Assembly: GCF_900103085.1 (NCBI RefSeq)
Contig: NZ_FMWR01000017.1
Location: 88,040 to 128,039, forward strand
DNA length: 40,000 nt
Origin: Gilliamella mensalis
Lineage (GTDB): Bacteria; Pseudomonadota; Gammaproteobacteria; Enterobacterales; Orbaceae
Reading direction: 5' to 3'
Shown: in pieces, positions 1,135-22,989 of the stretch
How positions within the stretch are numbered: the stretch's first letter is position 1
How the letters are laid out: the number at the start of each line of letters is the position of its first letter
Program-made: the position numbers and the translations under genes
The notes under the pieces: model-generated
What the model was told of the DNA's origin: nothing
What the model saw: only the letters and a program-made list of their open reading frames with translations
Database searches by the model: none

Positions 1135-1499
1135 GGGGCTGATTCTGGATTCGACGGGATTTGCGAAACCCAAGGTGCATGCCGAGGTGCGGTAGGCCTC
1201 GTAAATAAACCGCAAAAAAATAGTCGCAAACGACGAAAACTACGCACTAGCAGCTTAATAACCTGTATAGAGCCTTCTCTCCCTAGCCTCCGCTCGTAGG
1301 ACGGGGATCAAGAGGAGTCAAACCCAAACGAGATCGTGTGGAAGCCTTGCTTGGGGCGGAAGCATTAAACTTAATCAAGCTAGTTTATCAGTGGCGTGTT
1401 TGTTCGCAGCGGGTAGATGAAATTCAAAAACAAACTACGCATGTAGTACCGAGGATGTAGAGATTTCGGACGCGGGTTCAACTCCCGCCAGCTCCACCA
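1135..1499 (+). ncRNA. ssrA: tmRNA (SsrA)
   Basis: 5' GGGGCTGATTCTGGATTCGACGGG and 3' GGACGCGGGTTCAACTCCCGCCAGCTCCACCA form the tRNA-like acceptor/T-arm. The internal tag frame at 1226-1258, GCAAACGACGAAAACTACGCACTAGCAGCTTAA, encodes ANDENYALAA plus stop. Confidence 0.96.
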
Positions 1500-3249: not shown

Positions 3250-3267
3250 ATTGCTCAAACTCCACAA

Positions 3268-3734: not shown

Positions 3735-3793
3735 TTTGCGGCTAAAAATTATCGTTGTCTGTAATTACTCGAATTTTTTGTGAGGAGAGTAGA

Positions 3794-3991
3794 ATGAAAC
3801 ACACTAAATTATATACTATTGTAGCTACGGCTTTTGGTGGCTTATTAACATTTAGCCCTGTAACAGCGGTTTATTCTGATTTGCCGTCATATGAAAAAGA
3901 TGTATGCAATATGAGTTCTGATTGGACCAATGTTGGAAGTTATCTTTATAAAGGTATAGCCAGTGAACACCAAAAAGAAAAAACAAAATAA
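3794..3991 (+). CDS. Small secreted or membrane-anchored hypothetical protein (65 aa)
   Basis: The internal start MKHTKLYTIVATAFGGLLTFSPVTAV looks like a signal peptide and is preceded by GAGGAG. The track ORF 3755-3991 begins 13 codons earlier. Confidence 0.45.
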   Translation: MKHTKLYTIVATAFGGLLTFSPVTAVYSDLPSYEKDVCNMSSDWTNVGSYLYKGIASEHQKEKTK

Positions 3992-4489
3992 CCAACAAAA
4001 CCATAAAGACGTTGTAGCTAAGGAGTCCGAACAGATAAAATCGGATTCTTTGCTTGAACTAACTCCTGAGGTTTTGGAAAATATACCTTTATCTGAAAGG
4101 AAAAAAATACAACAAATCATGGTAAGTAAGACGCACGTCGGTCCACTTCCCTCATCAGAAGATTTGCAAGAATATGATAGAACATGTCCTGGGCTGCCAA
4201 TAGAATTATAGCGATGGCAGAAAAAGAACAGAACCATAGAATTGATGCAACCAAAAGAAGAGATAGCAGTGAGCATACATTAGCCTCACGAGGTCAAATA
4301 TTTGCTCTTATTTCTCTGGTTTTAATACTTCTATTTTGTGTCTTTTTAGCATTTATTGGTTCAACTAGCGGTGCGGTTACTGTTGCTTGTACTTTAGTGG
4401 TTAGTATTGTAGCTGTTTTTATTACTGGCCAAAAATCATCTAGCAGAAATACTAAAAATCAGCCTCAAGATAAAACCGACACAAAATAG
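3963..4489 (+). pseudogene. DUF2335-like membrane protein split by a 1-nt frameshift
   Basis: Track ORFs 3963-4211 (...HVGPLPSSEDLQEYDRTCPG) and 4184-4489 (AANRIIAMAEKEQNHRI... plus two TM helices) join into the DUF2335 pattern GPLPxxExLxxYxxxxPGAAxRIxxMAEKEQxHR if one G is added to the GGG run at 4191-4193. Confidence 0.6.
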
Positions 4490-4490
4490 A

Positions 4491-5510: not shown

Positions 5511-6301
5511 TATGCCACTTTAGCGTTTTGCATTAACTTTAGTAATTCTTTAAATCTACTATCATAAAAATGAGGCTGTGTTTCTCTAGGGTTATTCGGT
5601 GGGGTGAGATTTTTACCATATAACAATCCATACGCAGTGATTGACCAAAACTCTTTTTCTTCACCTGTTTTAACACTCTTACGTTTATTGCGCTCAACAA
5701 TGCCTAAATCTTTCAATATCGCATAAGCCACGGTCGTTTTTAATGGAACTTCATATTTTTGTAATAAATGCGTTAATGAAAAAGATACACGGCTAGAACC
5801 ATCAACTGAGTCACTTGGTGCATCTATTGCATAATTAGGTAATAGACAGGGTACACCTGAATATTTTTGTAATTCTTGGTACCCTTTTAATTTGGCCGAA
5901 TTAGATAAATTTAAAGTTCTAGATGCAGATTCTAAAATCATCAATCCAATATTAACCTTATCCACTTCTGATGATTTTCTAGCTACAACAGAATCAAATG
6001 TACGAATAACCTTTAGATTAAATGTGGGACTAATCCACATTGCATAGGCATAAACAAGCTCTTTACAAGCGTATGTTCCTCGCTCAATACCACCATGCAC
6101 CACTTCCAAAGCAGGAATTCCTGCTTTGACAAATTCTTCAGTTATTTCTTGTATTAATTCTTGGGCTTGTTTATTTTCAAGCCACAAAGATGGGCGATTT
6201 TTATTTAGTTGTCCTGATGCTCGATGAAGATCGTTTAAGCAATACAACCCCTGCTTATTTTGACGAATAATAACATTTTCAATAGCAATTAATTGATTCA
6301 T
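5510..6301 (-). CDS. KilA-N domain DNA-binding protein (antirepressor-like)
   Basis: 263 aa. The N-terminus IRQNKQGLYCLNDLHRASGQLNKNRPSLWLENKQAQELIQEI...GTYACKELVYAYAMWISPTFNLKVIRTF matches the KilA-N pattern. Confidence 0.7.
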   Translation of the reverse strand: MNQLIAIENVIIRQNKQGLYCLNDLHRASGQLNKNRPSLWLENKQAQELIQEITEEFVKAGIPALEVVHGGIERGTYACKELVYAYAMWISPTFNLKVIRTFDSVVARKSSEVDKVNIGLMILESASRTLNLSNSAKLKGYQELQKYSGVPCLLPNYAIDAPSDSVDGSSRVSFSLTHLLQKYEVPLKTTVAYAILKDLGIVERNKRKSVKTGEEKEFWSITAYGLLYGKNLTPPNNPRETQPHFYDSRFKELLKLMQNAKVA

Positions 6302-6364
6302 TTTTTTAATACTCCACTTGTTTTGAATAAACGCTTAACATCTGCCTTGTTAAACACCTTTCGC

Positions 6365-6392
6365 ACTATGTCAGTCTGCACTCTGACATAGT
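6365..6392 (-). promoter_or_regulatory. Leader hairpin B with conserved loop AGUGCAGA (perfect 10-bp stem)
   Basis: The minus-strand transcript reads ACTATGTCAG-AGTGCAGA-CTGACATAGT, ending about 63 nt upstream of the kilA-N start codon. A possible promoter TTCACT-17-TATATT sits immediately upstream. Confidence 0.55.
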
Positions 6393-6538
6393 TCTAATAT
6401 ATCACTTTTTATAATATTAGTGAAAATTGCATAAATATAATTGTCTTTCTTATTAAAATGAAATTTTTAGTAAAATAGACTTGTATTATAAATATAATCA
6501 AGTTAACCTATACAGGCTTTCAACGCTAATTGAGACAA

Positions 6539-9250: not shown

Positions 9251-9425
9251 CTTTTCACCTAATAAGAAACAATAGTTAATTTAACCATAATAAAATATTA
9301 TTGGTAATAGTACCATTTATTAGAAAACTAGACTAACTCCATTTGAGGGAAACATTGGTTAATACTATTTGTGCTATACTTGTACAACATATCATCAGTT
9401 TTTATAGGGTTATCAAGCATTGTTA

Positions 9426-9687
9426 TTAACCTTTTATTAACCTAATATTGATTAATACTTTACCATTTTTAATTGACTCACACCAGTCAGATTCAATTTG
9501 CTTGATCTGACTATCATCAACCCAAACCCCTGCTGTTGTAAGTGAATCGAACAAAGCCTTGAAATGCTGATTCCATATTTTTTCTTAAATATCCGCCCTT
9601 TCGGTCCTTTCTTAAATGAATATCTGGACACCCTTTTTTACGCATTGTTTTTTCAAACTCCATGCGTTCTAAATTAATATTTATCAT
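9426..9687 (-). pseudogene. Small phage gene (~87 codons) apparently frameshifted in a homopolymer run
   Basis: MININLERMEFEKTMRKKGCPDIHLRKDRKGGYLRK continues in another frame as IWNQHFKALFDSLTTAGVWVDDSQIKQIESDWCESIKNGKV. The switch coincides with the T6/A6 run at 9578-9583. Confidence 0.3.
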
Positions 9688-9732
9688 TATTTAACCTTAC
9701 ATTCATATACAACATCACCAACATAAAAGGCA

Positions 9733-10326
9733 TTAAGCTTTTGGCATAGCCTCCATTCTATTTACCAAAAACCGAGCAGCATTATTGATTTGCTCTGGCG
9801 ATAGCCGATCAATAATCATTTTGTTAATGCTTTGTTTAACTTTTGTTTGATGTTCAATTGTTAAATTTTTTGCATACTCAAATGAACCTCGGTTATTACC
9901 GTTAATTTTTTGCTTATTATCAGAACGGACAAACGAAATACGACCATTCACAATAAAATAAATTTCACTAGCTAATTTTCGTAACTCGTTAAACCACTCA
10001 ACCGACGTATCAACGGGTAACAACATCACGGTACCAACACCGCGATCTGCGGCTTCACGTGCTTTTTTAACCCACGGTAAGATTCGAGAATAAGGAGGAT
10101 TACAGAACGCAAAACCGCTTTTTAAGTGAGCCCAACCGTTCAGTAACGAATCATATGACTCAGTTAAATAATTCAAATGCAAATGATTGTGATCACTAGC
10201 AGCCACATCACAAACAAAACTAAAACGAGCATTTAAAAATTCATATAACTCAATCGGCGTTTGCCATAGATCTTTTATATCTGAATCAGTTTTGCTTTTT
10301 GAATGTTTATAATCAACTTTACCCAT
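9733..10326 (-). CDS. Phage DNA N-6-adenine methyltransferase (Dam-type, PF05869-like)
   Basis: 197 aa. WQTPIELYEFLNARFSFVCDVAAS...LLNGW...FCNPPYSRILPWVKKA...VMLLPVDTSVEWF...GRISF includes the NPPY catalytic motif. Confidence 0.85.
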   Translation of the reverse strand: MGKVDYKHSKSKTDSDIKDLWQTPIELYEFLNARFSFVCDVAASDHNHLHLNYLTESYDSLLNGWAHLKSGFAFCNPPYSRILPWVKKAREAADRGVGTVMLLPVDTSVEWFNELRKLASEIYFIVNGRISFVRSDNKQKINGNNRGSFEYAKNLTIEHQTKVKQSINKMIIDRLSPEQINNAARFLVNRMEAMPKA

Positions 10327-11038
10327 TTTCTGCTATACTCCTTTTTGCTTTCTCTCTCGCCCTTTCTCTCATCGCGTTGACTGCATCAGAATTGCAATAA
10401 TATACGCCGTACCCTGATTTTTTTTCTTCAAGTTGGACACGAATTTCAGGTATTACTTCACCGTTACTCAATTTTTTTGCCCATTTGTTGATTAGCATTT
10501 CGGCACGCTTTTCAACCTCGAACTCAGATTGATTGTATTGGCGCATGTGCTTTCTCAGATCGGTAACAATCCAGTACATAACTGGATGAGACCATGGGAA
10601 TTGCTCCGCTGTTAGACATGAAAAACCAATCTCAGCACTATACTTGTTGAACTCTCGCATAACTTGAGCAACTGTTGGTAACCCCATATCTGATGCCTCG
10701 CCCTCTTTGCACCATGAAATAAATTGACCAGGCGATGGGACAAATGGCGTGCTTTGTTGACGTGCTTTCTTCATACCAATTTCAAACTGATGTAACGTTG
10801 TTATGCCGTTTTCTTTAAATGCCAGTAACCATTGGTTTTTGAACTCATCAAGATCTATCTGAGTTTTTATTAACGCCGTTATTGCAGGGAATACCTGTTT
10901 TAATTGGATAAATAATTTATTAAAGTTTTTTTCAATTTCACAATTAAATTTTGGCGTTCCAATACTTGTATTTTTTGAGTTGAAATTTTGCTTTATTGCA
11001 ATTTCAGATGCGCTGTAAATTTCGTTTAAAGGTTTCAT
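10319..11038 (-). CDS. Lambda P-like replication protein (helicase loader)
   Basis: 239 aa. FPAITAL...NQWLLAFKENGITTLHQFEIGMKKARQQSTPFVPSPGQFISWCKEG...GLPTVAQVM...PWSHPVMYWIVTDL is colinear with lambda P (RRQWIAAFAENGITTMEQL..RPFLPSPGQFVAWCRE..GLPNVSEL). Confidence 0.85.
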   Translation of the reverse strand: MKPLNEIYSASEIAIKQNFNSKNTSIGTPKFNCEIEKNFNKLFIQLKQVFPAITALIKTQIDLDEFKNQWLLAFKENGITTLHQFEIGMKKARQQSTPFVPSPGQFISWCKEGEASDMGLPTVAQVMREFNKYSAEIGFSCLTAEQFPWSHPVMYWIVTDLRKHMRQYNQSEFEVEKRAEMLINKWAKKLSNGEVIPEIRVQLEEKKSGYGVYYCNSDAVNAMRERAREKAKRSIAENG

Positions 11039-11886
11039 TGTAGAACCTCCTCACGTAACCAACCTGTACTATTCCAATCAATTTCAGACGATTTGTTTAC
11101 CGCTGTTTTACTATCAGATAACATTTGAGTCGTGAGGATCATCCATTTCTCAGAAAGGCTCGACGGTGACAAAATGTTTTTAAACCAAAATTCATGATGA
11201 TTAGCCCAATTAAAAACTTCTAATATTTCTCGTGTCCGCTTGTTGACTCGTTTTTTTAACAACCGAATCTCATTGCTCCATCGTGGCCAATTAGGTTCTT
11301 GGTAAGTTGGGTTAATCTCAAGCACTTTTTGATAAATATACTGGGCTACTTTCAAATCATCTTTTGAACCCCAGTATTTTCCGTTTGCTGAATAAATTTC
11401 AGCTTGAGGATGTTTTTCTAAAAATTGGGATAATTTATCAGCGTCGGAAATTTGGCTAAAATTTCCAGACCCTAATTTATTATTATTTATATTATTATTT
11501 ATATATGGATCGGGGTCAGATTCTGTCGGGTCAGTTTTTGACCGGTCAGAATGTGACGGGTCAGAATTTGGCTGGTGAGAATTAACAATTTCTAAAGCTA
11601 GTTTTTGTAGTTTTTGGACATTTATACAATACAAATTACTGTCATTCCGTTGACCATTTCGACGAGCTTTTACATATAACCAATCATCTTTCTTTAGGCT
11701 GCTAAGGGCTAACTTAACAGCACTTTTACTTGAGCCAGTTTGGCTGACAATTGTATCAATTGAGGGGAAACTACCCCCCTCATCATTGGAAAAATCAGCT
11801 AACCTTAGTAAAACTAATAATTTAGTTCCTTTCATTCCACTTGTAGCACAAACATCCCAAACATAGGAAGTTAACTTGGTACTCAT
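11035..11886 (-). CDS. Replication initiator (lambda O-like role; N-terminal winged-helix/HTH)
   Basis: 283 aa. The N-terminus SYVWDVCATSGMKGTKLLVLLRLADFSNDEGGSFPSIDTIVSQTGSSKSAVKLAL has an HTH_36-like pattern. The gene lies immediately upstream of the P-like gene and contains iterons plus an AT-rich tract. Confidence 0.7.
   Translation of the reverse strand: MSTKLTSYVWDVCATSGMKGTKLLVLLRLADFSNDEGGSFPSIDTIVSQTGSSKSAVKLALSSLKKDDWLYVKARRNGQRNDSNLYCINVQKLQKLALEIVNSHQPNSDPSHSDRSKTDPTESDPDPYINNNINNNKLGSGNFSQISDADKLSQFLEKHPQAEIYSANGKYWGSKDDLKVAQYIYQKVLEINPTYQEPNWPRWSNEIRLLKKRVNKRTREILEVFNWANHHEFWFKNILSPSSLSEKWMILTTQMLSDSKTAVNKSSEIDWNSTGWLREEVLQ
11473..11580. repeat. Putative replication origin inside the O-like gene: five iterons at exact 15-bp spacing plus an adjacent AT-rich tract
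   Basis: GGTCAG cores start at 11514, 11529, 11544 and 11559, with a GGTGAG variant at 11574. The AT tract TAATTTATTATTATTTATATTATTATTTATATAT lies at about 11473-11506. Confidence 0.6.
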
Positions 11887-12152
11887 AGATTAACCTCTTT
11901 GTTATTGTCGTTATTCAAACTTTGTTGTTTGATTAGAAAAGACCACAAAAATTCGACAAATTGGTGGCTGACAGGTGTCCAGATGTGATTTATCATGGCT
12001 TCATATTCAAAGCCTGATTGTGAAAACTTGCAACGCAATTGCGTTACAGTACAATTTAGTGTTAAACTATTCATGCGACTAATACTCCACAAGTGTTTTT
12101 TCGCAACCGACCGATAGCCTTCTGCAAAATTGCTATCGGTCACCCTTTCCAA
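11883..12152 (-). CDS. Hypothetical small phage protein (89 aa)
   Basis: ORF only. Its start overlaps the upstream gene's end and its stop overlaps the O-like gene's start (coupled arrangement). No recognisable motif. Confidence 0.4.
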   Translation of the reverse strand: MERVTDSNFAEGYRSVAKKHLWSISRMNSLTLNCTVTQLRCKFSQSGFEYEAMINHIWTPVSHQFVEFLWSFLIKQQSLNNDNNKEVNL

Positions 12153-12619
12153 AAATCATTTCAGTTATAACGATAATTTCACTCAATCTACATTGAATTG
12201 CATACGACGTAGCTTTTAATGACTTTTTCTCTTTTTTATCTAATATTCCATCTGCAGTAAATTCATTATGTTGCCGACAAAATTGACCCAGTTCTGCAAT
12301 AAGATTATTAAATTTATTTAATAACTCGTCGTTATCAAATTCATTAAATTCAGGCAACTTAACAAAAACACCGCCTCGATATTTTGCAATTGCCTCTGTA
12401 ATAACATTAGAATTGGCTTCTGCTTCCATTTCTAATATCATCCCCAGCGGTACCATTTGCCCATTTAATTGCCGCACACGATTGCGTAATGCATTTTCTG
12501 TACACTGACGTTGGATCTAGTCGTTTCGCCATTTCAGGGTACTTACCGTCAAATGATGTGATTAAATGATGAATTGCATCGGTTATCTCTTTCGGTGTTG
12601 GATAATTTCTATTGTCCAC
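12133..12619 (-). pseudogene. CII-like (CP76-type) regulatory protein, frameshifted
   Basis: Track ORFs 12407-12619 and 12133-12477 overlap in different frames. A third frame across about 12480-12517 reads IQRQCTENALRNRVRQLNGQMVPLGMILEMEAEA and links them. The position after cro matches cII. Confidence 0.5.
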
Positions 12620-12645
12620 ATTTACCTCTATTCTTGGTGGTTGTT

Positions 12646-12852
12646 TTAATTATGGTTTTCTTTATTTTGATAAAGGGTCTCATCAAATGCTAATTCCGAA
12701 TTAGTTCTAAATGCGGCTTCAATAGCGCGATCCTTTGGAATTAACTTCTGAGGTCTTTTTTGCCACTGATAAAAAGCTTCCGGGCTAATATTAAAAAACT
12801 CGGCCACTTTTTTGGGTGTTTTAAAATATGAAATTAATTGATCTGTAGTCAT
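12646..12852 (-). CDS. Cro-like / YdaS-family HTH regulator
   Basis: 68 aa, KKVAEFFNISPEAFYQWQKRPQKLIPKDRAIEAAFRTNSEL. It is divergent from the cI-like repressor across a 101-bp operator region. Confidence 0.7.
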   Translation of the reverse strand: MTTDQLISYFKTPKKVAEFFNISPEAFYQWQKRPQKLIPKDRAIEAAFRTNSELAFDETLYQNKENHN

Positions 12853-12867
12853 AACTACTCCTTATTA

Positions 12868-12883
12868 TCTAAGTTAAGTTAGA
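12868..12883. promoter_or_regulatory. Operator-like palindrome 1 (TCTAAG-N4-GTTAGA) in the cI/cro intergenic region
   Basis: It sits within the larger palindrome TTATCTAAGTTAAGTTAGATAA at 12865-12886. It shares the half-sites CTAA/TTAG at 6-nt spacing with 12917-12932 and 13765-13780. Confidence 0.5.
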
Positions 12884-12916
12884 TAACACTATCGAATTTA
12901 AACTAGATCAATAAAA

Positions 12917-12932
12917 ACTAAGATAGATTAGA
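12917..12932. promoter_or_regulatory. Operator-like palindrome 2 (ACTAAG-N4-ATTAGA)
   Basis: Same half-site geometry as 12868-12883, located 22 nt upstream of the cI start codon. Confidence 0.4.
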
Positions 12933-12953
12933 AAAAAATTTTTAGGTTTTATT

Positions 12954-13580
12954 ATGGAAACAGTTGGACAAAGAATAAAGAAATTACGAAAAGAGAATAA
13001 AAAAACTCAGATTGAGGTAGGTAAATTTTGCAATGTTTCCGATGTTACGGTTGGATTCTGGGAAAGAGATGTAAATGAACCAAAAGGCAGAGCATTGCAA
13101 TTATTAGCTAAGTTGTTTAATGTAGACATAAATTATATTTTATACGGATCATTAAATAATCTGTCACCAGTAAAATCATCAACTGTACAAACAGTTCCTT
13201 TACTATCGACAGTTCAAGCTGGGAATTTTACAGAACACATGATAAACAATAATGAAGTAGACGAATGGATCAATACTACATTTTCGATATCATCAGAATC
13301 ATTTGCGCTTAAAGTTGTCGGGGACTCAATGTTAAACCCTTTGGGTAACCCAAGCATACCAGAGGATTCAATTATAATAGTAGATACTTTGCAGTTTGCA
13401 GACAATGGAAAAATAGTTGTAGCAAGAATTGATGGAACGGATGAAGTAACAGTAAAAAAATTAGTAATAGATGGACCAAATAGATATTTGATGCCGCTAA
13501 ATCCACAATATAAAAGTATCCCAATTAATAATAATTGTGTAATTATCGGTGTCGTCAAAGGCGTTCAAATTGAATTATAA
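12954..13580 (+). CDS. cI-like prophage repressor (XRE HTH plus S24 LexA-type autopeptidase)
   Basis: 208 aa. The N-terminus QRIKKLRKENKKTQIEVGKFCNVSDVTVGFWE is the HTH. The C-terminus VQAGNF...ALKVVGDSMLNP...VARIDGTDEVTVKKL carries the Ser/Lys dyad. Confidence 0.9.
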   Translation: METVGQRIKKLRKENKKTQIEVGKFCNVSDVTVGFWERDVNEPKGRALQLLAKLFNVDINYILYGSLNNLSPVKSSTVQTVPLLSTVQAGNFTEHMINNNEVDEWINTTFSISSESFALKVVGDSMLNPLGNPSIPEDSIIIVDTLQFADNGKIVVARIDGTDEVTVKKLVIDGPNRYLMPLNPQYKSIPINNNCVIIGVVKGVQIEL

Positions 13581-13687
13581 AAGGAGATTTTATGAAAAAT
13601 ATAGTTCTAAGATTAATATTGATAATCTTATCAAACAATATTTAGAACTTTCGAAATCTCAATAGTAAAAATAAAATGCAATAAGAA

Positions 13688-13705
13688 GTGACCACGCTTG
13701 GTCAC
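13688..13705. terminator. Hairpin GTGACCA-CGCT-TGGTCAC between cI and the SieB-like cassette
   Basis: Perfect 7-bp stem. The T-richer tail is on the minus strand (TTCTTATTGCATTTTATTTTT), so it may terminate the convergent minus-strand cassette and/or the cI transcript. Confidence 0.4.
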
Positions 13706-13753
13706 TATTCTCCACGTCTTCTTTCGCTATGTTTTTCATAAAATAAGAACTTG

Positions 13754-13782
13754 TTGACTAAATTTCTAAGATAACTTAGAAT
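13754..13782 (+). promoter_or_regulatory. PL-like promoter (TTGACT-17 nt-TAGAAT) overlapped by operator-like palindrome 3 (13765-13780, TCTAAG-ATAA-CTTAGA)
   Basis: -35 at 13754-13759 and -10 at 13777-13782. The 16-bp palindrome has the same half-sites as the two sites in the cI/cro region, and the position matches OL/PL in an inverted lambda map. Confidence 0.45.
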
Positions 13783-13823
13783 TTAATTATTAATTTTACA
13801 TAGCTCTTTAAAAATCAAAACAT

Positions 13824-14039
13824 CTAATTAATTGTTCTTGTTTTCAGTTCGTCGTATTTGAAACCCGTTTCTGATTCCATGAATTCTACTGCTGAAATTG
13901 GATAACCGCATAAAGCGCATGAGATGCTTTTAACAAAAATAGCCTCATCATTTGGGTTTAGCTTAGGTTCATGTTCGAAAAGATATTCGTGGCTTTGGCA
14001 TATAACACAACTGTGTTTTATTGTTTTAATCTCGTCCAT
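13824..14039 (-). CDS. Small zinc-ribbon protein (71 aa)
   Basis: CVICQ...CALCG form two CxxC pairs. It is co-oriented with and downstream of the SieB-like gene. Confidence 0.45.
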   Translation of the reverse strand: MDEIKTIKHSCVICQSHEYLFEHEPKLNPNDEAIFVKSISCALCGYPISAVEFMESETGFKYDELKTRTIN

Positions 14040-14172
14040 AGTCTTAGATCAGTTAATCAGTTAATTAGAGTTATTCATTATAATAATAACACTGAATTTA
14101 TATACAGTGTTTTTTTGATGAATTGTTTTGATAGTTCTTTAAAAATTAGGAACAGCATTAACCAAGTGTATT

Positions 14173-14739
14173 TTATTCGATAAATTCATTATAAATTTCG
14201 GTAATAATGCCTGCATAACTTGGATGTATATGGTAGATCATGGATAACAAGTGACGTCCTCTTAAATCACCTCCCAGCGGAATAATAATATTTTTGCTTT
14301 GCAATGATTTAACATACTGATCAGAGCCATCTAAGCTGAGCGAATTTGTGCGCTGGTGTACAAACATGAATAAGATTTTTAATTCATTTTCATCTAATTG
14401 ATGAATTATTTTCTTGATATGTTGATCTCTGTTTTTTATTTTTATTTTTTGGTTCTTGTTTTTTAAAATTTTATTAAAAACCAAAACAACAGTATCAACA
14501 ACCAAGTAACTGATGATAAAGAGCACAATATAAAACACTGTCTTTCCAGAAACAAATGGAACCTCTATATTTTCAATATATGTTATTACTGCCTTTGGAG
14601 TAAAAACACAACCACAAATAAACAAAAGAACGGTATACATAATTCGCCTTATTGATACTTTCCCTGTTACAAAAGAAAAAAGATGAGTAACCCATTCCGG
14701 CATGATTGAATATCCAAATTTACTGTTGTGGTAATTCAA
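14173..14739 (-). CDS. SieB-like superinfection exclusion membrane protein
   Basis: 188 aa. The N-terminal half has 2-3 hydrophobic helices (YTVLLFICGCVFTPKAVI, VFYIVLFIISYLVVDTVVLVF). The C-terminus QLDENELKILFMFVHQRTNSLSLDGSDQYVKSLQSKNIII resembles the SieB family as I recall it. Size and location beside the immunity region match lambda/P22 sieB. Confidence 0.45.
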   Translation of the reverse strand: MNYHNSKFGYSIMPEWVTHLFSFVTGKVSIRRIMYTVLLFICGCVFTPKAVITYIENIEVPFVSGKTVFYIVLFIISYLVVDTVVLVFNKILKNKNQKIKIKNRDQHIKKIIHQLDENELKILFMFVHQRTNSLSLDGSDQYVKSLQSKNIIIPLGGDLRGRHLLSMIYHIHPSYAGIITEIYNEFIE

Positions 14740-14858
14740 TTATACCAGATTCCTTGCTGTTGTGGTGACAAAAAGGACACTTGAGCCTAACAAGTATAAA
14801 GATAGGCACACTTAGTTAATGCAATTCCTGATTACAGAATGTTAGTGGAGTAAATCGT

Positions 14859-14889
14859 ACGCTCTCGGAGTGCAGACCAGAGCGTTTTT
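14859..14889 (+). promoter_or_regulatory. Leader hairpin C with conserved loop AGUGCAGA (7+2-bp stem, T-run; terminator-like)
   Basis: ACGCTCT-C-GG-AGTGCAGA-CC-AGAGCGT-TTTT, with the T-run ending about 34 nt upstream of the 14924 start codon. Confidence 0.55.
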
Positions 14890-14923
14890 AAAGATTTTTT
14901 TATAAACAACGTGGAGTATTAGT

Positions 14924-15448
14924 ATGACTTGGATTACAACCCATTCAGGGTTAAATTTTGATTATCAAAACCCTACAGCCAATACAATCTGTATTGAAGA
15001 TATCGCAAAAGGCTTATCTCATGAATGCCGTTACACTGGCCAGCTTGATAGATTTTATTCTGTAGCTCAACATTCTGTTGAATGTAGTTACGTTGTTGCC
15101 GATAAATTTAAATTAGAAGCATTGTTACATGATGCTGTTGAAGCGTACTGCAAAGACATCCCATCACCACTAAAAAAATTATTACATGATTACCGCCTAG
15201 TTGAAGACAAGGTTGATCAAGTTATCAGGCAAAAATTTAATTTGCCATTAACTATTTCTCCCGAAGTTAAACAAGCTGACCTTATTTTATTAGCAACTGA
15301 GCATCGTGATATAGCTAATGATGGCAAAGAATGGCCAATGCTAAAAGGTATTCCATTGCTTGAGAGAAAAATAGAGCCAGTGCCAAGTGGCATTGCTTAT
15401 AACCGCTTCATGCGTCGGTTTTATGAGTTGATCAAACAGGAGATGTAA
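14924..15448 (+). CDS. HD-domain phosphohydrolase (YfbR/5'-deoxynucleotidase-like)
   Basis: 174 aa. IEDIAKGLSHECRYTGQLDRFYSVAQHSVECS...EALLHDAVEAYCKDIPSPLKK...KQADLILLATEHRD carries the H..HD..D pattern. Confidence 0.7.
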   Translation: MTWITTHSGLNFDYQNPTANTICIEDIAKGLSHECRYTGQLDRFYSVAQHSVECSYVVADKFKLEALLHDAVEAYCKDIPSPLKKLLHDYRLVEDKVDQVIRQKFNLPLTISPEVKQADLILLATEHRDIANDGKEWPMLKGIPLLERKIEPVPSGIAYNRFMRRFYELIKQEM

Positions 15449-15460
15449 AAATGGCAGAAT

Positions 15461-15727
15461 ATGGCGGGCGTTATTTGTCGAGATCAACTAAAACGCGAAT
15501 ATTTAAAAACAGACACATTTATAACGGCTAATGAGTATTTTACATCTGAACTATCTGATTATCTGGTTGAGTTTCAAGCTGATCTTTGGGAAACGGCCAA
15601 CCCATTACATAGATTAACTCAATTCTGGTTAGCTACACCAAATAAAACTGAAATTACAGAACAAGTTGTCATGAAAATGATTAATAGTAAAAAAGGTTTT
15701 AATAATTTTATGACTGGGCATGAATAA
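15461..15727 (+). CDS. Hypothetical phage protein (88 aa)
   Basis: ORF only. It sits in the same operon orientation and has no recognisable motif. Confidence 0.4.
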   Translation: MAGVICRDQLKREYLKTDTFITANEYFTSELSDYLVEFQADLWETANPLHRLTQFWLATPNKTEITEQVVMKMINSKKGFNNFMTGHE

Positions 15728-15995
15728 AATCATATAGTTAACAGAAGATCAATTATTGGAAATAGCTGGAAGTTACGATCGTGAAAAACCACCAACCACT
15801 GAGATGGTTATGGCTGTCGAAATACTAAATCGTAGAGCAGAAATTAGGTTAATAAAAAGTAAAGTTTATTCAACAAAACAAAGAATAGATAACGATATTA
15901 AAGAACTATATTTAGATTTAGAACGACTATAAAGCATGGAACAAGCGATTGAGGGCTGAATATGACTAGATATAGCAAACAAGGAAAAAATTAAA

Positions 15996-16595
15996 ATGAC
16001 AATTAATACAGTTATTATTGATATTGAAACATTAGATACAAAACCGACGGCAATTATATTGTCAATTGGAGCGTTTGCATTTGATAGATTTAATTTAAAT
16101 GAAACGTCAGAAAAAATAGAAATGGTTGAAATTTCAGGTTGTTACAGTGATCATCATCTATACCTGTCATGTGACCTGCCAGACCAATTATTTTATTCCA
16201 ACCGAACGATCAGCAATGAAACGCTAGAATGGTGGAGATCTCAAGTTGATAAAAAAATTGCATTCCCTGTACCAGGGCATTCTCACTTAGAAGAAGCTCT
16301 TAAGAAATTAATATCTAAAATAAATGAATGGAAAAAAATTAACCCTGATATTGCATTTTATTTTAGAGGAACAAATTTTGACCCGATTATTTTAGAAAAT
16401 GCATTCAATGAATATTCATTACAAACGCCGTGGTTATATTACCAAGTCAGAGATGTTAGAACATATATTGACGCATTAACACGAACAGCAAAAGGAAAAA
16501 TTGAAGACTATACGCCGTCATTTAATTTTTTAAAACATAACGCACTACATGATGCAATGTTCGATGCAGAGCAAATGTGTTTGGTTTCAAAATAA
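15996..16595 (+). CDS. DEDDh-type 3'-5' exonuclease (DnaQ-like fold)
   Basis: 199 aa. VIIDIETLD is Exo I (DxE). FRGTNFDPIILEN is Exo II. HNALHDAMFDAEQ is Exo III (H-x4-D). Confidence 0.7.
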   Translation: MTINTVIIDIETLDTKPTAIILSIGAFAFDRFNLNETSEKIEMVEISGCYSDHHLYLSCDLPDQLFYSNRTISNETLEWWRSQVDKKIAFPVPGHSHLEEALKKLISKINEWKKINPDIAFYFRGTNFDPIILENAFNEYSLQTPWLYYQVRDVRTYIDALTRTAKGKIEDYTPSFNFLKHNALHDAMFDAEQMCLVSK

Positions 16596-16654
16596 TTGTT
16601 AAGTTGCAGATAACAATTATTTAATAATTTTGTGGAGTAAAAGGAGTGCAAAAA

Positions 16655-16912
16655 ATGATACGTTATTTACCAATTTCTAAATATTGTAGTGAATATGGCG
16701 ACACGGTAGGTGCTGTTGATAAAAGGCTAAAACGAGGCATTTGGGCTTTCGGAGTACATGTTTTCCGTGTTGAAGGTATAAAAGAACGTCAGGTAGATAT
16801 AGTAGCGGTTGATGAATGGAAAGGAAAGGAAAGGAAAAGCAAAAATGTCGCGTGGTGTAACAATTCGAAAACACGCAAACGTTCAAACATTAATTATCAC
16901 ATTTACATTTAA
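16655..16912 (+). CDS. xis: Excisionase-like protein
   Basis: Small basic protein immediately 5' of int and overlapping it. The ATG at 16655 lies 9 nt after AAGGAG; the track ORF starts at the GTG at 16646. There is a loose resemblance to lambda-type Xis. Confidence 0.5.
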   Translation: MIRYLPISKYCSEYGDTVGAVDKRLKRGIWAFGVHVFRVEGIKERQVDIVAVDEWKGKERKSKNVAWCNNSKTRKRSNINYHIYI

Positions 16913-17990
16913 AGGTGTTTGTTGTCGTGAACCGCTACGTGGACTACCCGTTACCCCATCAAACATAAAATATGCAGAACGACAAAGAGGTGAAATATTA
17001 AATAGTATTGAACGAGGAACTTTTAATTATGCTGATTTCTTTCCAAAGTCAAGTAAGCTGAAAATATTTGGCTATTCAAGTAAAGGATTAAAAGTTAAGA
17101 GCTATTTAGATAGTTATTTATCTTTATGTGAAAAACGTAAGTTATCTCCATCAACGATCAACGGCTATCAGAAGTGCATTAATGCACTTCATGATCTTCA
17201 TGATATTTGCATAACCGAATTAACACCAGGAATTATAAAAAATTGGGTACAAGAACAAACAACATCAATTAAGACTAAACGTAATAACTTATCTTACCTT
17301 AAGTCATCTCTTGATGATGCTATTATTGATGGGATAATTTCTATTAATCCCGTTCAGTCTGTATCAGTATCTAAATATCATGACAAAAGCACAGAGCAAG
17401 ATAAAAGTGATTACGTTGTTGATCCGTTCTCGCCAGATGAGGTTAACACAATATTACAATGTTGTAGCAATGAACAATGGGAAAATTTATTTAGGTTCGC
17501 TTTAGCAACAGGCATGAGGTCAAGCGAGCTTTGCGCATTAAAATGGAAAAATATCGACTTTATTAAAAACAAAGTACATGTAAATTCTGCTCGAGTAGTT
17601 GGAGTTGAAAAAGGAACAAAAACAAAAGCAGGAACTCGTATTATTGATCTGGATAACAATGCATTAATAGCATTAGCTAAACAAAAGAAATTTAGTTTTT
17701 TACATAATGAGTATGTTTTTTTGGATCCAAAAACAAATAAACAATGGGAGGGGGCTGATGCAATACGAAAAAAAGCTTGGGTACCAGTGTTAAAACGATC
17801 TGGAGTACGCTACCGCAACCCGTATCAAACTAGACACACGTTTGCAACATATCATCTAAGCAACGGCGTTAATCTATTTTGGTTAGCAGAGCAAATGGGG
17901 CATAAAGGTCCAGAAATGTTATTCCGGCATTACGGTTCGTACCTTGAATCATACGACGGTAATACATCAATCAAAAAAGCATCAAAATAA
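16845..17990 (+). CDS. int: Tyrosine recombinase / phage integrase
   Basis: The N-terminal arm-binding pattern is GVTIRKHANVQTLIITFTFKGVCCREPLRGLPVTPSNIKYAERQRGEILNSIERGTFNY. The catalytic region reads GMRSSELCALKW...TRHTFAT...GHKGPEMLFRHYGSY (R...HxxR...Y). It ends 73 nt before attR. The track ORF starts 12 codons earlier, at 16809. Confidence 0.9.
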   Translation: MSRGVTIRKHANVQTLIITFTFKGVCCREPLRGLPVTPSNIKYAERQRGEILNSIERGTFNYADFFPKSSKLKIFGYSSKGLKVKSYLDSYLSLCEKRKLSPSTINGYQKCINALHDLHDICITELTPGIIKNWVQEQTTSIKTKRNNLSYLKSSLDDAIIDGIISINPVQSVSVSKYHDKSTEQDKSDYVVDPFSPDEVNTILQCCSNEQWENLFRFALATGMRSSELCALKWKNIDFIKNKVHVNSARVVGVEKGTKTKAGTRIIDLDNNALIALAKQKKFSFLHNEYVFLDPKTNKQWEGADAIRKKAWVPVLKRSGVRYRNPYQTRHTFATYHLSNGVNLFWLAEQMGHKGPEMLFRHYGSYLESYDGNTSIKKASK

Positions 17991-18063
17991 AATGCACGTC
18001 TAATGCACGCAAAAAACAAATAAAATAAAAAATCATTATTATTTATATTGATATTAAAATCTA

Positions 18064-18096
18064 GACGCGGGTTCAACTCCCGCCAGCTCCACCACT
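18064..18096 (+). repeat. attR core of the prophage (also the proximal att of the next island): 33-bp copy of the ssrA 3' end
   Basis: Identical to 1469-1501. Confidence 0.9.
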
Positions 18097-18270: not shown

Positions 18271-18872
18271 ATGGCACGTATAACTACACCACTCACAAAT
18301 ACTAAAAATCAGAACAGCTAAGTCCTTAGAAAAAGATTATACTTTATCTGATGGGAATGGTTTGTATTTACTTGTTAAATCAATAGGTACAAAGATTTGG
18401 CGTTTTAATTATATCGGCCACCTCTAAAGTAAGAGCCCTTGTAAGTTTTGGATCATATCCTGAAATTAGTTTAGCTGATGCTAGACTAAAAAGGGATGAA
18501 GCAAAACAATTACTTGCTAAAGGAATAGATCCTCAACAATATAAAAAAGATCAACTAAAACTACTTAGAGATGAACAGAATAATACTTTTGAAAAGGTTG
18601 CTACTGATTGGTTTAAATTAAAATCTTCATCTAATTTCAAAGCTGCTACATTAAAAGATATTTGGCGTTCTTTAGAATTACATGTACTACCTTATGTAGG
18701 TAGTATTGCTATCACAGAAATTAAAGCAAGAGATTTTATAAATGCTCTTGAACCAATTAAACAACAAGGAAAGCTAGAATCTATTCGACGAATATGCCAA
18801 CGAATCAAAGAAAAAATAACCGTCACAGATTCTCATAAAGCGATTTTTGATAAAACGCCTTATGAGCTTTAG
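18271..18872 (+). pseudogene. P4/CP4-57-type integrase, N-terminal ~190 codons only, with at least two frameshifts
   Basis: Frames read MARITTPLTNTK / EKDYTLSDGNGLYLLVKSIGTKIWRFNY / LVSFGSYPEISLADARLKRDEAKQLLAKGIDPQQYKK...FEKVATDWF. This is the classic P4-integrase N-terminal domain; the catalytic domain is absent. Confidence 0.8.
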
Positions 18873-18920: not shown

Positions 18921-19223
18921 TTATGCACCCTTTTCGTCTATAGCATGAGTTGACGGTTGAGCGTGCGGAGCATTGTTAATTTGAATTGAAATATTATTTG
19001 GTGACTGCTGATTATATTTACTTTTATAGATGCAATTAGCATAATCAACCATACTGCTAGTTAGAAAAATATCTACAATCCATCCAATACCGAACAAACC
19101 AAAAGTAAATAACCAAATAAAACCAGAAATCCATTTACCACAGTACATTCGATGGATTCCTCCAACCCCCAAAAAGAACCACAATAAATAAGCAACACCT
19201 TTACTTTTCATAAGTATCTCCAT
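18921..19223 (-). CDS. TM2 domain-containing membrane protein
   Basis: KGVAYLLWFFLGVGGIHRMYCGKWISGFIWLFTFGLFGIGWIVDIFL matches the TM2 pattern. The likely start is MKSKG at 19211. Confidence 0.7.
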   Translation of the reverse strand: MEILMKSKGVAYLLWFFLGVGGIHRMYCGKWISGFIWLFTFGLFGIGWIVDIFLTSSMVDYANCIYKSKYNQQSPNNISIQINNAPHAQPSTHAIDEKGA

Positions 19224-19468: not shown

Positions 19469-19821
19469 TTATTTCGTTTCATTTTTAAGTAATGATAAAC
19501 GTTTGGTGTCAACGTGTAGCATTTCGCCCAGATAGGTTTTGTTATAGCGTTTAGCTTGCCATCTTAATTTATCTTCAATAGATTTTTCAACTTTAACCAG
19601 ACGTTTAATACCATATAACTGATAGTTTTATAACGTTCATTCTTACTGGTTAAAGGGACAAAAAGCTTTAATCGAGCTTTCTCTAGTACGTTATAAATGG
19701 TCGGGCGACTAACCATAAAGCATTTAGCCAAATCAGTGATGGTTATTTTTTCTTTATGATATAAACGCCATATCTCTTGTCTGTGATAAGGCGTTAGTTT
19801 TATTTTTTTATGTATATTCAT
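19469..19821 (-). pseudogene. IS481-family transposase fragment (N-terminal HTH region to the first catalytic D), frameshifted and truncated
   Basis: MNIHKKIKLTPYHRQEIWRLYHKEKITITDLAKCFMVSRPTIYNVLEKARL... After a frameshift it continues YGIKRLVKVEKSIEDKLRWQAKRYNKTYLGEMLHVDTKRLSLLKNETK then stop. Confidence 0.7.
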
Positions 19822-19957
19822 TACAGTATTCTCTCTAATTACTGTAAACAATGCGAGGAACTCCAACAGATAATGAAAAACAGAAAAGTAATAAAAAGAT
19901 GGATCGAGATTATTAACTATTATGTGATCTTTACAGATCACTTATTTAAAATTTTGG

Positions 19958-20182: not shown

Positions 20183-20292
20183 TTGACGCTCATTGAACGA
20201 TATAAACGATCAAAAATAATGATGAACAAATTCTATTAGTTTTATATCGAATATATTTTAAAAAATATGAAATTTAGGGTAAACCACAAATT

Positions 20293-20321
20293 TTGATACA
20301 ATCACATTTATTATTTATTAT
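20293..20321 (+). promoter_or_regulatory. Putative sigma-70 promoter (TTGATA-17 nt-TATTAT) for the ATPase/TOPRIM-like pair
   Basis: -35 at 20293-20298 and -10 at 20316-20321, about 62 nt upstream of the ATG at 20384 (RBS AGGAAA). The background is very AT-rich, so specificity is low. Confidence 0.35.
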
Positions 20322-20383
20322 TTATTGTTTATTTATAATAAATAAATTAGAATTAATTTATATTCCGATATTAGGAAAATATA

Positions 20384-21580
20384 ATGATATTTACTAGATT
20401 GAAAATCGATAATCTATTCAGTTTCAAAAATGCAGAACTTGAACTAAGTTTTAAACGTAAACCTACTTTTCCGACTATAGATGGTGAACATATTTTAGGA
20501 AGAGAAAATTATTATTTTAAAAAAGTTTGCATTTTATCTGGAACTAATTCAAGCGGTAAAACCTCTGTTGGAAAAATTCTTTGCGATATACAAAATTATA
20601 TTTTGCAAAATCATCCATTACAGTCTGGAGATAAAATTTACAATAAAAGTAAATTCGGTGTTATTGAAGTTGATTATGCTACTACAACGCCTAAGCCCTA
20701 TGCACACAGGCTTAAAATTGAAATCACTGAAAATAATGTAATAAATAATATTCTTTATGTCAATTCACCTATAGGTAAAAACGATAGCTGTTTTCAGCTA
20801 AGAAAAAAAATTGACAAAATAATTTTAAATAAAGAAGCACCTAGAGGAGCTTGTTTTTTTAAAAGAGATGGCTCAGAAGTCATTAATTTCCCCTTTGAAT
20901 TTATTAAAAAACATGGTGTTAATGGTTGTTGGTATTATTTATTCTCTGAAAATGACGAGACTAGTATTCCTATTAGAGATACTTTTGATTTAAAAATTAT
21001 GAAAAGTATTTTGTCTTCTTTTGATTATACAATTGAAAAAGTAGTAGAAATAGCAATAAATGGCTCAGGTAAAAAGAAAGAGAAAAAAGAGGTAACTGGA
21101 CACAGAATATATTTTAAAAATGGAGATGCGGTTGATATTAATGACAAAGGTGATATAACAAATAATAAAAATCGATTATCTAAAGGGACTTATGATGCAA
21201 TAAAAATAGCCTCATTAATAGGGAAAATTGGACAGGAAAAAGAGTTTTGTGATAATGATGTTACGTGTGCAACTTACTATTTAGATGAGAAAATGTCGTA
21301 CTCTCATTCTGAACTTGAAGTTTCAATTATTAATTTAATTATTAGTAAAATGGGAAGAAATTGTCAATTTTTTTATACGACTCACAATTATGAAGTTTTA
21401 GACTTAAATTTGCCAATTCATTCATTTACTTTTTTAGTAAAAGATTCTGGTAATTCTTTCTTTATTGAAGCTCAGGAAAAATACAAAAAAAATGATAGAA
21501 ATTTAATTAATCACATTAAAAACAATTTTTTCAAGACTCTCCCATCTACTAATGAACTAGAAAGATTAATAGAGGATTAG
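20384..21580 (+). CDS. ABC/SMC-type ATPase (AAA_21/AAA_15-like), defence-associated class
   Basis: 398 aa. The N-terminus FTRLKIDNLFSFKNAELELSF is followed by Walker A LSGTNSSGKTS (nt 20540-20566). LSKGTYDAIKIA is signature-like, ATYYLDE is Walker B, and FFYTTHN is the H-loop. Confidence 0.8.
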   Translation: MIFTRLKIDNLFSFKNAELELSFKRKPTFPTIDGEHILGRENYYFKKVCILSGTNSSGKTSVGKILCDIQNYILQNHPLQSGDKIYNKSKFGVIEVDYATTTPKPYAHRLKIEITENNVINNILYVNSPIGKNDSCFQLRKKIDKIILNKEAPRGACFFKRDGSEVINFPFEFIKKHGVNGCWYYLFSENDETSIPIRDTFDLKIMKSILSSFDYTIEKVVEIAINGSGKKKEKKEVTGHRIYFKNGDAVDINDKGDITNNKNRLSKGTYDAIKIASLIGKIGQEKEFCDNDVTCATYYLDEKMSYSHSELEVSIINLIISKMGRNCQFFYTTHNYEVLDLNLPIHSFTFLVKDSGNSFFIEAQEKYKKNDRNLINHIKNNFFKTLPSTNELERLIED

Positions 21581-21585
21581 TTTCT

Positions 21586-22122
21586 ATGAGCTATTGTTTT
21601 GTTGAAGGTGAGTGTGAGCAAAAACTTGTTCAGGAACTTATATCTAGTAAAAAAATAAAATTGTCTCATATTAAAAAAATCAATATGTGGGAGTCTGCTA
21701 TCGAAAGACATTTAGTCCAAATTAAAAGAAATGACAAAATTTTTGTGATATTTGATACTGATGTTATTACTCCGAAGCGGAGCGATGTTTTTATAAACAA
21801 TCTTAGAAAGCTTATAAAAAATGGAAATAAAATAGTATTATTAGAACAAAATACTAATTTTGAGGATGAGTTATGCCATTGCTTAGCTCTAAAATTACCT
21901 CTTTTATTTGCAAGTTTTCATGCTCAAGGAAAGAATGAATTTAAAAAGAAATTTATAAATAATTCAACCCTTATAAAAAAATTAACAGATTTAAATATAA
22001 AATGGGTGGGATTGTGGGATAGAGGTGTATTTCATCCAAACCTTACGAATACTATACGTAAAAATATAAGTGTGGGAAACTTTTTAAGTTTACAAAATAG
22101 TAAAAATTTAAGCCTTTTTTAG
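21586..22122 (+). CDS. Small TOPRIM-like / RloB-like protein (178 aa), probable nuclease partner of the ATPase
   Basis: YCFVEGECEQKL (acidic Glu), IFVIFDTDV (DxD) and LLEQNTNFEDELCHCL match the order of the RloB/DUF4435 motifs (CEGxxxE ... FDxD ... NxxFExxL). It begins 5 nt after the ATPase stop. Confidence 0.6.
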   Translation: MSYCFVEGECEQKLVQELISSKKIKLSHIKKINMWESAIERHLVQIKRNDKIFVIFDTDVITPKRSDVFINNLRKLIKNGNKIVLLEQNTNFEDELCHCLALKLPLLFASFHAQGKNEFKKKFINNSTLIKKLTDLNIKWVGLWDRGVFHPNLTNTIRKNISVGNFLSLQNSKNLSLF

Positions 22123-22913: not shown

Positions 22914-22989
22914 TGGCTCCTCCAACAGGACTTGAACCTGTGACATACGGATTAACAGTCCGCCGTTCTACCGACTGAACTATGGAGGA
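22914..22989 (-). tRNA. tRNA-Asn (anticodon GTT)
   Basis: The reverse complement TCCTCCATAGTTCAGTCGGTAGAACGGCGGACTGTTAATCCGTATGTCACAGGTTCAAGTCCTGTTGGAGGAGCCA is 76 nt and near-identical to E. coli tRNA-Asn as I recall it. CCA is encoded. Confidence 0.95.

Follow-up and report, generated by a model that had tools for sequence, protein, structure and literature searches.

A candidate anti-phage operon of an ABC-type ATPase and a small TOPRIM-like protein, carried by a decayed Gilliamella mensalis island at ssrA

Systems that combine an ABC-type ATPase with a TOPRIM protein, including Old, Gabija, PARIS and AbiL, rank among the commonest immune modules of bacteria. Their triggers and targets are only now emerging, and tRNA cleavage is a recurring theme. 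The recognized defence systems of this kind, with ATPases of the AAA_15/21 type, are OLD classes 1 to 4 (including Gabija and PARIS), AbiL, MADS3-4, RloAB and HEC-01 (Hma-embedded candidate). Here we analyze a pair of adjacent genes, gene 1 and gene 2, from a 40,000-nucleotide stretch of Gilliamella mensalis contig NZ_FMWR01000017.1 (the whole stretch is henceforth called the window, and coordinates refer to it). Gene 1 encodes a predicted ABC ATPase and gene 2 a small protein whose place in the TOPRIM superfamily is likely, though not proven, judging from conserved residues mapped onto a predicted structure. We favour, as reasonably probable, an anti-phage role of the AbiL, RloAB or PARIS kind, in which the pair would work by abortive infection or as a toxin-antitoxin-like module.

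Three described systems frame this comparison. In PARIS, AriA sequesters AriB and lets it go on sensing Ocr, whereupon AriB cleaves tRNA-Lys (PMC11464382; mechanism summarised in PMC13064643). The Old protein of phage P2 is an ATP-activated tRNase that cuts tRNA anticodon stems (PMC12445682). Finally, a computational survey of toxin-antitoxin-like gene pairs, NetFlax, distinguishes M70, an OLD-type TOPRIM domain that occurs as a separate protein beside an AAA ATPase (Ernits et al. 2023, PMC10440598), and AAA(D29) ATPases have been found to neutralise the TOPRIM_OLD toxins D44 (RloB-like) and D60 in toxicity assays (PMC10440598).

The operon and its ATPase

The module and the sequence ahead of it consist of the following features.

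20184..20383, plus strand: AT-rich leader 5' of gene 1, presumed (predicted) promoter region
20384..21580, plus strand: gene 1, 398 residues, 45.9 kDa, ATG start; ABC/SMC-type ATPase, AbiLi-like
21586..22122, plus strand: gene 2, 178 residues, 20.7 kDa, pI 9.6, ATG start; stand-alone TOPRIM-like predicted nuclease

A first-pass annotation, made from the letters of this DNA alone, had called the same two open reading frames (ORFs) below an AT-rich region of 200 bp. Its coordinates, lengths and 5-nt spacing proved exact, the motifs it named in both proteins lie at the residues that it gave, and the leader has a G+C content of 18%, within the lowest 0.3% among 200-bp windows. A promoter scan found sigma-70-like matches in the leader no more often than in shuffled sequence, so we claim no promoter there, and the leader is not conserved in the closest homologous locus (L098). 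Both ORFs are far longer than chance would allow: at the base composition of the window a stop codon has a probability of 0.094 per codon, or one expected per 10-11 codons, so that ORFs of 398 and 178 codons would arise by chance with probabilities of 9e-18 and 2e-8, respectively. Homologues of each protein, moreover, number in the hundreds. Gene 1 is preceded by a Shine-Dalgarno-like AGGA 6 nt ahead of its start, and gene 2 by a GAGGA 9 nt ahead of its start, within the 3' end of gene 1. The 5-nt gap together with this internal Shine-Dalgarno-like site shows, at the level of gene arrangement, that the two predicted proteins are co-produced.

Gene 1 contains the succession of motifs expected of an ABC ATPase, namely FTRLKIDNLFSF at residues 3-14, GTNSSGKTS at 53-61, LSKGT at 265-269, YYLDE at 298-302 and TTHN at 332-335. 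We assign G53-S61 to the Walker A motif (with K59), S266/G268/T269 to a signature-like motif, D301-E302 to Walker B and H334 to the H-loop. Among 23 homologues of 34-69% identity, residues N55, G58, K59, S266, G268, T269, D301, E302, Q328 and H334 are invariant. When the AlphaFold2 model (predicted local distance difference test score, pLDDT, 84.7) was used as a Foldseek query, it matched the heads of SMC (4i99, 3.6e-10), PtuA (8sux, 1e-9) and Rad50 (3qkt, 3e-9) with a probability of 1.0, and heads of these three kinds spanned expectation values (E) of 1e-10 to 1e-8. A beta-rich insert, at about residues 76-260 of the model, stands where a coiled coil would be. The motifs and the modelled fold thus show gene 1 to encode a predicted SMC/Rad50/PtuA-type ABC ATPase with a complete, family-invariant catalytic set, in line with the SMC/ABC layout first read from its motifs.

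Pfam AAA_21 scores 25.3 bits on gene 1, just below its 27-bit cut-off, NCBIfam has no model for the product of either gene, and PHROGs holds the gene 1 family as phrog_5836, function unknown. Among defence models, PADLOC AbiLi (PDLC02335) matches gene 1 over residues 3-393 (4.6e-27, 92.9 bits) and is matched by 23/23 members of the ATPase family, with a best value of 2e-30, making it by far the top defence model. Much weaker matches within the family go to mad3 (21/23) and AriA (20/23).

The small partner and its relation to described systems

A TOPRIM domain is a three-layer alpha/beta fold with sheet order 2-1-3-4, defined by a glutamate on the loop after strand 1 and a DxD motif directly after strand 3 (PMC12065111). 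Gene 2 carries the motifs FVEGECE (residues 5-11), FDTDV (56-60) and NFEDEL (91-96), and its AlphaFold2 model (pLDDT 93.5, predicted template modelling score 0.88) has four main strands that alternate with helices. In this model strand 1 spans residues 2-6, with E7 just after it and a helix at 9-20; strand 3 (51-56) is followed directly by D57 and D59, and strand 4 (82-87) precedes E93 and E95. Both defining features are therefore found in gene 2, a conserved glutamate after strand 1 and a DxD after strand 3. In an alignment of 146 representatives of the family (mean identity 30%), E7, G8, K120 and W144 are invariant, and E11, D57, D59, N72, E93 and E95 are conserved in at least 90%. Catalysis by OLD nucleases relies on two metal ions and on a conserved lysine or arginine (Bp K562 / Ts R487) downstream of the TOPRIM core (PMC7049728), and the additional acidic pair and invariant lysine (K120) of gene 2 recall, by analogy, that arrangement of a two-metal site plus a basic residue.

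The family to which gene 2 belongs is large and uniform, and neither Pfam nor NCBIfam has a model for it. It comprises at least 760 clusters at 90% identity and at least 904 clusters at 50% identity, 653 of which score below 1e-10, and PHROGs lists it as phrog_10204 (2.4e-31), function unknown. Nearly all members are stand-alone proteins of 165-185 residues, with the top 150 representatives ranging from about 130 to 212.

Weak profile matches of gene 2 recur in TOPRIM nuclease families. Gene 2 itself scores 0.013 with DUF3226, 0.12 with OLD-like_TOPRIM and 0.0039 with AbiLii (PDLC02337; 15.8 bits, confined to profile positions 32-83 of 170), the AbiLii values being plain profile scores without PADLOC's own thresholds. 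Across the 146 members, PADLOC models gave weak matches to AbiLii in 32 (best 2.3e-6), to several HEC-01B models (best 1.2e-4) and to GajA in 2, and Pfam gave sub-threshold matches to OLD-like_TOPRIM_1 in 6, OLD-like_TOPRIM in 5, RloB in 2, Toprim_2 in 2 and Toprim in 1. DUF3226, whose clan was not verified, is likewise sub-threshold in 2/146; the remaining profile matches are singletons. The RloB model PF13707 does not match gene 2 at E <= 1; within the family it is seen in the two members just mentioned (sub-threshold, E = 0.0017) and, in precomputed annotation, in 1 among the 120 clusters listed. On these scores gene 2 does not qualify as a member of the RloB, DUF4435 or OLD-TOPRIM families.

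How, then, does the pair compare with described systems? For lactococcal AbiLi/AbiLii, Campylobacter RloA/B, AriB and NetFlax D44/D60 the comparison was made through PADLOC and Pfam models as proxies. AbiL of Lactococcus lactis is likewise a two-gene operon in which an ABC ATPase precedes a TOPRIM-type effector; the AbiLi model is matched by all 23 ATPases of the family, and AbiLii is the commonest weak match of the partner family. At about 93 bits, however, the ATPase is a relative rather than a core member, and the partner has no convincing AbiLii score (family best 2e-6) and stays below the Pfam RloB threshold. RloA/RloB of Campylobacter, linked to type I restriction-modification (R-M), also joins an ATPase to a TOPRIM-superfamily partner, and RloB-family genes have been described within type I R-M operons, as is one pair of the present family in Glaesserella. 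Unlike RloA/RloB, most members of this family reside in prophages or islands and not in R-M operons.

PARIS (AriA/AriB, class 4 OLD) shares the split into ABC ATPase and TOPRIM protein and the carriage by phages and satellites in defence hotspots. Its AriA models are weakly matched by the ATPase family (best 5.6e-9), far below AbiLi, and AriA PDLC02980 reaches only 3.4e-5 on gene 1, in the P-loop region (residues 51-105). DUF4435 (PF14491), which was used to detect PARIS in PMC9122126, and AriB were matched neither by gene 2 nor by any of the 146 members in Pfam and PADLOC. The proteins differ in size as well, with 45.9 and 20.7 kDa here versus 55 kDa for AriA and 35 kDa for AriB. The first-pass annotation had suggested a divergent AbiL or PARIS relative: the AbiL side of that suggestion stands, AbiL being the nearest catalogued system for the ATPase, while gene 2 gives no DUF4435 or AriB signal. 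PARIS may still serve as a plausible mechanistic template by analogy, with sequestration, trigger-induced release and tRNA cleavage.

P2 Old and the other fused OLD nucleases of classes 1-3, including GajA, combine the same two activities that are predicted here, yet their domains are fused, whereas the ATPase and TOPRIM-like ORFs are separate in the window and in all intact homologous loci. Mad3/mad4 of MADS and HEC-01 also pair an ABC ATPase with a separate TOPRIM-fold partner. In spite of the mad3 matches of the ATPases there is no mad4/DUF4276 signal in the partner, and for HEC-01 there are scattered weak family matches, E = 0.011 for HEC-01A on gene 1 and no HEC-01B match on gene 2 itself.

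The family is already listed in NetFlax. Under D29:M70 (Dataset S1) this survey gives the pair WP_180047730.1 / WP_180047728.1, which is homologous to both window proteins: WP_180047730.1 is 31.6% identical to the gene 1 protein over 99% (E = 3e-44), and WP_180047728.1 (174 residues) aligns with the gene 2 family in hhalign (98.6%, E = 1e-15) and with the gene 2 protein in BLASTP (2e-9). Thus the family had already been noticed computationally and independently called TOPRIM, although the toxicity-neutralisation data of NetFlax come from the D44 and D60 nodes and not from M70. Its predictions include no pair (0) in G. mensalis and do not list a homologue from Alysiella filiformis. In the literature we found no named or tested system that corresponds to the family, and no characterised system matches the pair at high identity. 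To this extent the novelty first suggested for the pair holds, but it was overstated: the module is not categorically new. Pairs of its kind are well known, and the family itself had surfaced before, in NetFlax as M70 and in PHROGs as two entries of unknown function.

Inheritance and genomic contexts of the pair

A pattern scan with one genome per species yielded 70 loci with an ATPase homologue, from Gamma- and Betaproteobacteria, Firmicutes, Spirochaetes, Fusobacteria and Mycoplasmatales. In 59/70 an ORF of the gene 2 family lies immediately 3' of the ATPase gene on the same strand, and a fragment-level search showed most of the remaining loci to be contig ends or frameshifted copies. The partner is thus present in about 61 of 64 informative loci, and only three (L027, L054 and L061) truly lack it. 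The reverse search, from gene 2 in viral contigs, found the ATPase upstream in 7/9, the others being a contig end and a remnant. Overlaps of 1 or 4 nt are the commonest gene junctions among the homologous loci. Pairwise identities of the two proteins correlate (Pearson 0.87 over 46 pairs; Mantel 0/2000), which indicates that the pair is inherited and transferred as a unit, although the correlation alone does not prove a physical interaction. The closest relative, L098, is 69% identical in the ATPase and 50% in the partner, and its flanks share nothing with the window beyond AT-richness, so that the conserved unit is the two ORFs alone. Co-conservation in other genomes, on which the first-pass annotation had staked its proposal, therefore holds, and it reaches across phyla.

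Exceptions to pairing have features of their own. In the three orphan loci the ATPase lies at about 6001-7200 (L027 and L061) or 6001-7625 (L054), and two of them adjoin housekeeping genes (rpsI/rplM region); in L054 a convergent neighbour of 161 residues resembles, by eye, an AbiQ/ToxN-type toxin. In seven further loci (L013, L040, L046, L048, L049, L050 and L060) a frameshift or truncation has struck the partner but the ORF of the ATPase is still long, which suggests recurrent inactivation of a putative toxic component.

Many of the pairs sit in accessory DNA. In P2-like prophages of Klebsiella michiganensis, Salmonella enterica and Citrobacter portucalensis the pair lies between the portal gene and gpA, the site occupied by old and tin in P2, which Rousset et al. 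2022 (PMC9122126) define as a hotspot of defence genes; this shared position is a further likeness to P2 Old. In Glaesserella parasuis (L093, 1327-10237) a Bro-N gene is followed by hsdS-hsdR-[pair]-hsdM, placing the pair inside a type I R-M operon. The pair adjoins a prophage integrase in Escherichia coli and in Acinetobacter phage Ab105-3phi, and an element from Clostridiales carries it beside a HindVP-type (type II) R-M system, Vsr and an integrase. A pair of Taylorella asinigenitalis (L094, 11869-14246) is found a few kb from genes for Tae4 and Tlde1-type type VI effectors and small unannotated ORFs. Given a large family located in known anti-phage hotspots, we consider phage defence, of a generally familiar type, the most likely role of the pair.

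The same contexts bear on whether the pair might instead be a selfish toxin-antitoxin or addiction cassette that stabilises its carrier elements (prophages, islands, small plasmids) without a dedicated anti-phage function. NetFlax detects its family member purely as a toxin-antitoxin-like conserved two-gene unit, D29:M70, and AAA(D29) partners do neutralise TOPRIM_OLD toxins; the G. mensalis module has remained intact though the surrounding island has lost its integrase (see below); and one pair, WP_180047730.1 / WP_180047728.1 of Acinetobacter piscicola, is carried by a 12.7-kb mobilisable plasmid. That plasmid is, however, the sole one with a homologue. The family is found in 1/72,556 plasmid records, where addiction modules are usually common, and in 1/50,697 deposited phage genomes, and the P2 gpA-portal hotspot in three genera and the type I R-M operon are typical sites of defence cargo. 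Addiction and defence roles are not mutually exclusive, and we judge a solely selfish role unlikely.

A second alternative, a RecF/RecR-like or SMC-like DNA-maintenance pair serving host or phage recombination or replication and not conflict, draws on the resemblance of the ATPase model to SMC, Rad50 and RecN heads. RecF-RecR likewise pairs an ABC ATPase with a TOPRIM protein. A cell-cycle role is reported for an archaeal OLD-family ATPase (PMC12796447). The distribution of the present pair argues otherwise, since it is patchy, horizontally transferred and found in accessory hotspots instead of core genome positions, and its frequent pseudogenisation and orphaning are typical of accessory conflict genes. 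In addition, the sequence of gene 2 and a Pfam scan reveal no RecR-type zinc-finger or helix-hairpin-helix features. We therefore hold a maintenance function to be highly improbable.

In G. mensalis the setting of the pair is an island at ssrA, the gene for transfer-messenger RNA (tmRNA), with the following features outside the module itself (IS, insertion sequence; HTH, helix-turn-helix; att, attachment site).

1135..1499, plus strand: tmRNA (ssrA), original integration target
1729-2847: IS3-family element, frameshifted, at the ssrA-proximal end of the lambdoid prophage remnant
16809-17990: prophage integrase, intact, 393 residues, of the lambdoid prophage remnant
18064..18096, plus strand: 33-nt perfect copy of the tmRNA 3' end (1469-1501); attR of the later prophage and ssrA-proximal end of the older island
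18284..18869, plus strand: P4-type integrase pseudogene of the older island, frameshifted, N-terminal portion only
18921..19223, minus strand: gene for a TM2-domain small membrane protein, in the low-GC islet between integrase pseudogene and module
19564..19941, minus strand: HTH-only ORF, IS/resolvase-type relic (HTH match; 62-nt repeat)
22914..22989, minus strand: tRNA-Asn, approximate right limit of the low-GC islet

A lambdoid prophage remnant of 16.6 kb (1502-18063), bounded by the perfect 33-nt repeats, separates ssrA from the older island. In the P4-type integrase pseudogene the Arm-DNA-bind_3 domain is split across fragments 18284-18424 and 18387-18869 in different frames, a partial Phage_int_M follows, and the catalytic domain is missing. 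As this pseudogene comes directly after the duplicated ssrA end, the module belongs to an older island in tandem with the prophage. An initial view that the module lies outside any island, since it is beyond attR of the ssrA prophage, was dropped once the pseudogene had been found. The module is intact cargo of the older, decayed ssrA island, which the later prophage insertion moved away from ssrA. The integrase pseudogene, IS relics and att repeat on which a decayed ssrA island had originally been proposed were all located.

The G+C content is 27.7% in the islet around the module and 33.5% over the window as a whole. A 62-nt repeat, 85% identical between 784-845 and 19747-19808, joins the HTH/IS-relic ORF to a relic upstream of the tmRNA gene, where a tandem repeat of three units, each about 193 bp long (159-727, 67-92% identical), is also found. 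An exact look-up of the TM2 protein gave no identical protein on any other contig, and a third att copy, sought as the distal island end on the tRNA-Asn side, was not found. The prophage remnant encodes a Q antiterminator, DUF968, KilA-N, a 903-residue protein, Dam, P, an O-like protein, a cI-like repressor, SieB, an exonuclease and the intact integrase; it has no lysis or structural genes, and the frameshifted IS3-family element occupies their expected place. The 903-residue protein (6539-9250, minus strand) joins HSDR_N, a nuclease-type N-terminal domain of restriction enzymes, to an S1 RNA-binding domain at the C terminus. This combination is unusual, and the gene could represent a further prophage-borne defence function.

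The integrase pseudogene, the flanking IS relics and the loss of any distal att copy raise the question of whether the cassette in G. mensalis is itself an inactive relic of the decayed island. Both ORFs, though, are full length relative to their families, both proteins retain all invariant and near-invariant residues, and Shine-Dalgarno-like sequences stand ahead of both genes, which makes a relic distinctly improbable.

A defence function weighed, and its meaning

The evidence so far concerns one co-inherited operon for an ABC-type ATPase and what we predict to be a minimal TOPRIM-type, metal-dependent nuclease. If the pair is an anti-phage module of the AbiL, RloAB or PARIS kind, ATPase oligomers would bind the small nuclease and hold it inactive, with the beta-rich insert as a possible sensor. 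A phage-derived cue, together with ATP binding or hydrolysis, would then release or activate the nuclease. Judging from the conserved residues and by analogy with OLD-family TOPRIM nucleases, E7/E11, D57/D59 and E93/E95 may hold two metal ions, and K120 may stabilise the transition state. Cleavage of tRNA, comparable with AriB and P2 Old, or of DNA would stop growth and abort the infection; DNA as the alternative target would have a precedent in GajA and in class 1/2 OLD proteins in vitro.

Several findings weigh against this reading. The Fusobacterium AbiLi failed to neutralise AbiLii toxicity (PMC3985639), so the sequestration step may not generalise, and HEC-01, an ATPase with a TOPRIM protein, conferred no protection when tested. 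In contrast to AbiL, the present family is known from sequence and models, with no Abi phenotype on record, and its Taylorella and Pelistega homologues are in plain chromosomal contexts. With the host island decaying, activity of the module in this G. mensalis strain is not assured. For gene 2, Pfam, NCBIfam and PADLOC offer no model with a convincing score, profile searches of PDB sequences with three alignments returned nothing meaningful, and Foldseek of the model against PDB and BFVD found no significant neighbour and no TOPRIM in the top 50, the top matches being SIS, flavodoxin, Csa3 and resolvase folds (E >= 6e-3, template modelling score about 0.3). Aligned with P2 Old in hhalign, the gene 2 family gives a sole alignment that is not statistically significant (probability 6% and 2%); it falls in the Old TOPRIM domain with the acidic motifs in register, VEGECE on VEGKTE and FDTDV on ADCDF. 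The P2 Old template was a single sequence, Old homologues from viral contigs being too alike for a useful profile.

The top Foldseek folds, and family thresholds for TOPRIM that are never reached, would be expected if gene 2 were not a nuclease but a small regulator or ligand binder with a Rossmann-like (SIS-, flavodoxin- or CARF-like) fold, the effector then being the ATPase or an unlinked factor. Yet the Foldseek matches are themselves insignificant, and the conservation of six acidic residues and a lysine at TOPRIM-typical positions is hard to explain in a ligand sensor. The recurrent weak profile matches point to TOPRIM nuclease families, and NetFlax made the same call independently. A non-nuclease partner is, in our estimate, quite unlikely. 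The TOPRIM assignment first made for gene 2 from the order of its acidic motifs is thus supported in part and indirectly, by their positions on the predicted structure and by the recurrent weak matches, whereas a significant fold or profile match is lacking.

Within a defence function there is room for a further, more tentative reading, which we regard as possible but doubtful: the partner may represent a lineage of its own, very widespread and made up of minimal TOPRIM effectors that stand alone. With its dedicated ATPase it would form a separate, split OLD-like defence class with its own trigger and target. In that event, and just as tentatively, the pair may compete with old/tin for the P2 hotspot. 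Were such a lineage confirmed, no smaller system with a TOPRIM nuclease under ATPase control would be known, and the pair would offer a tractable way to study gating by an ABC ATPase.

For the favoured anti-phage module of the AbiL, RloAB or PARIS kind, the significance lies in a family that is abundant, phylogenetically broad, present in the classical P2 old/tin hotspot and essentially unannotated, so that standard defence finders probably under-count the pair. At 46 + 21 kDa, the pair is small enough to be attractive for studying the restraint and release of a TOPRIM nuclease by an ATPase, and the requirements of a minimal nuclease core. For Gilliamella, a symbiont of the bee gut, the analysis contributes a pair of candidate defence genes.

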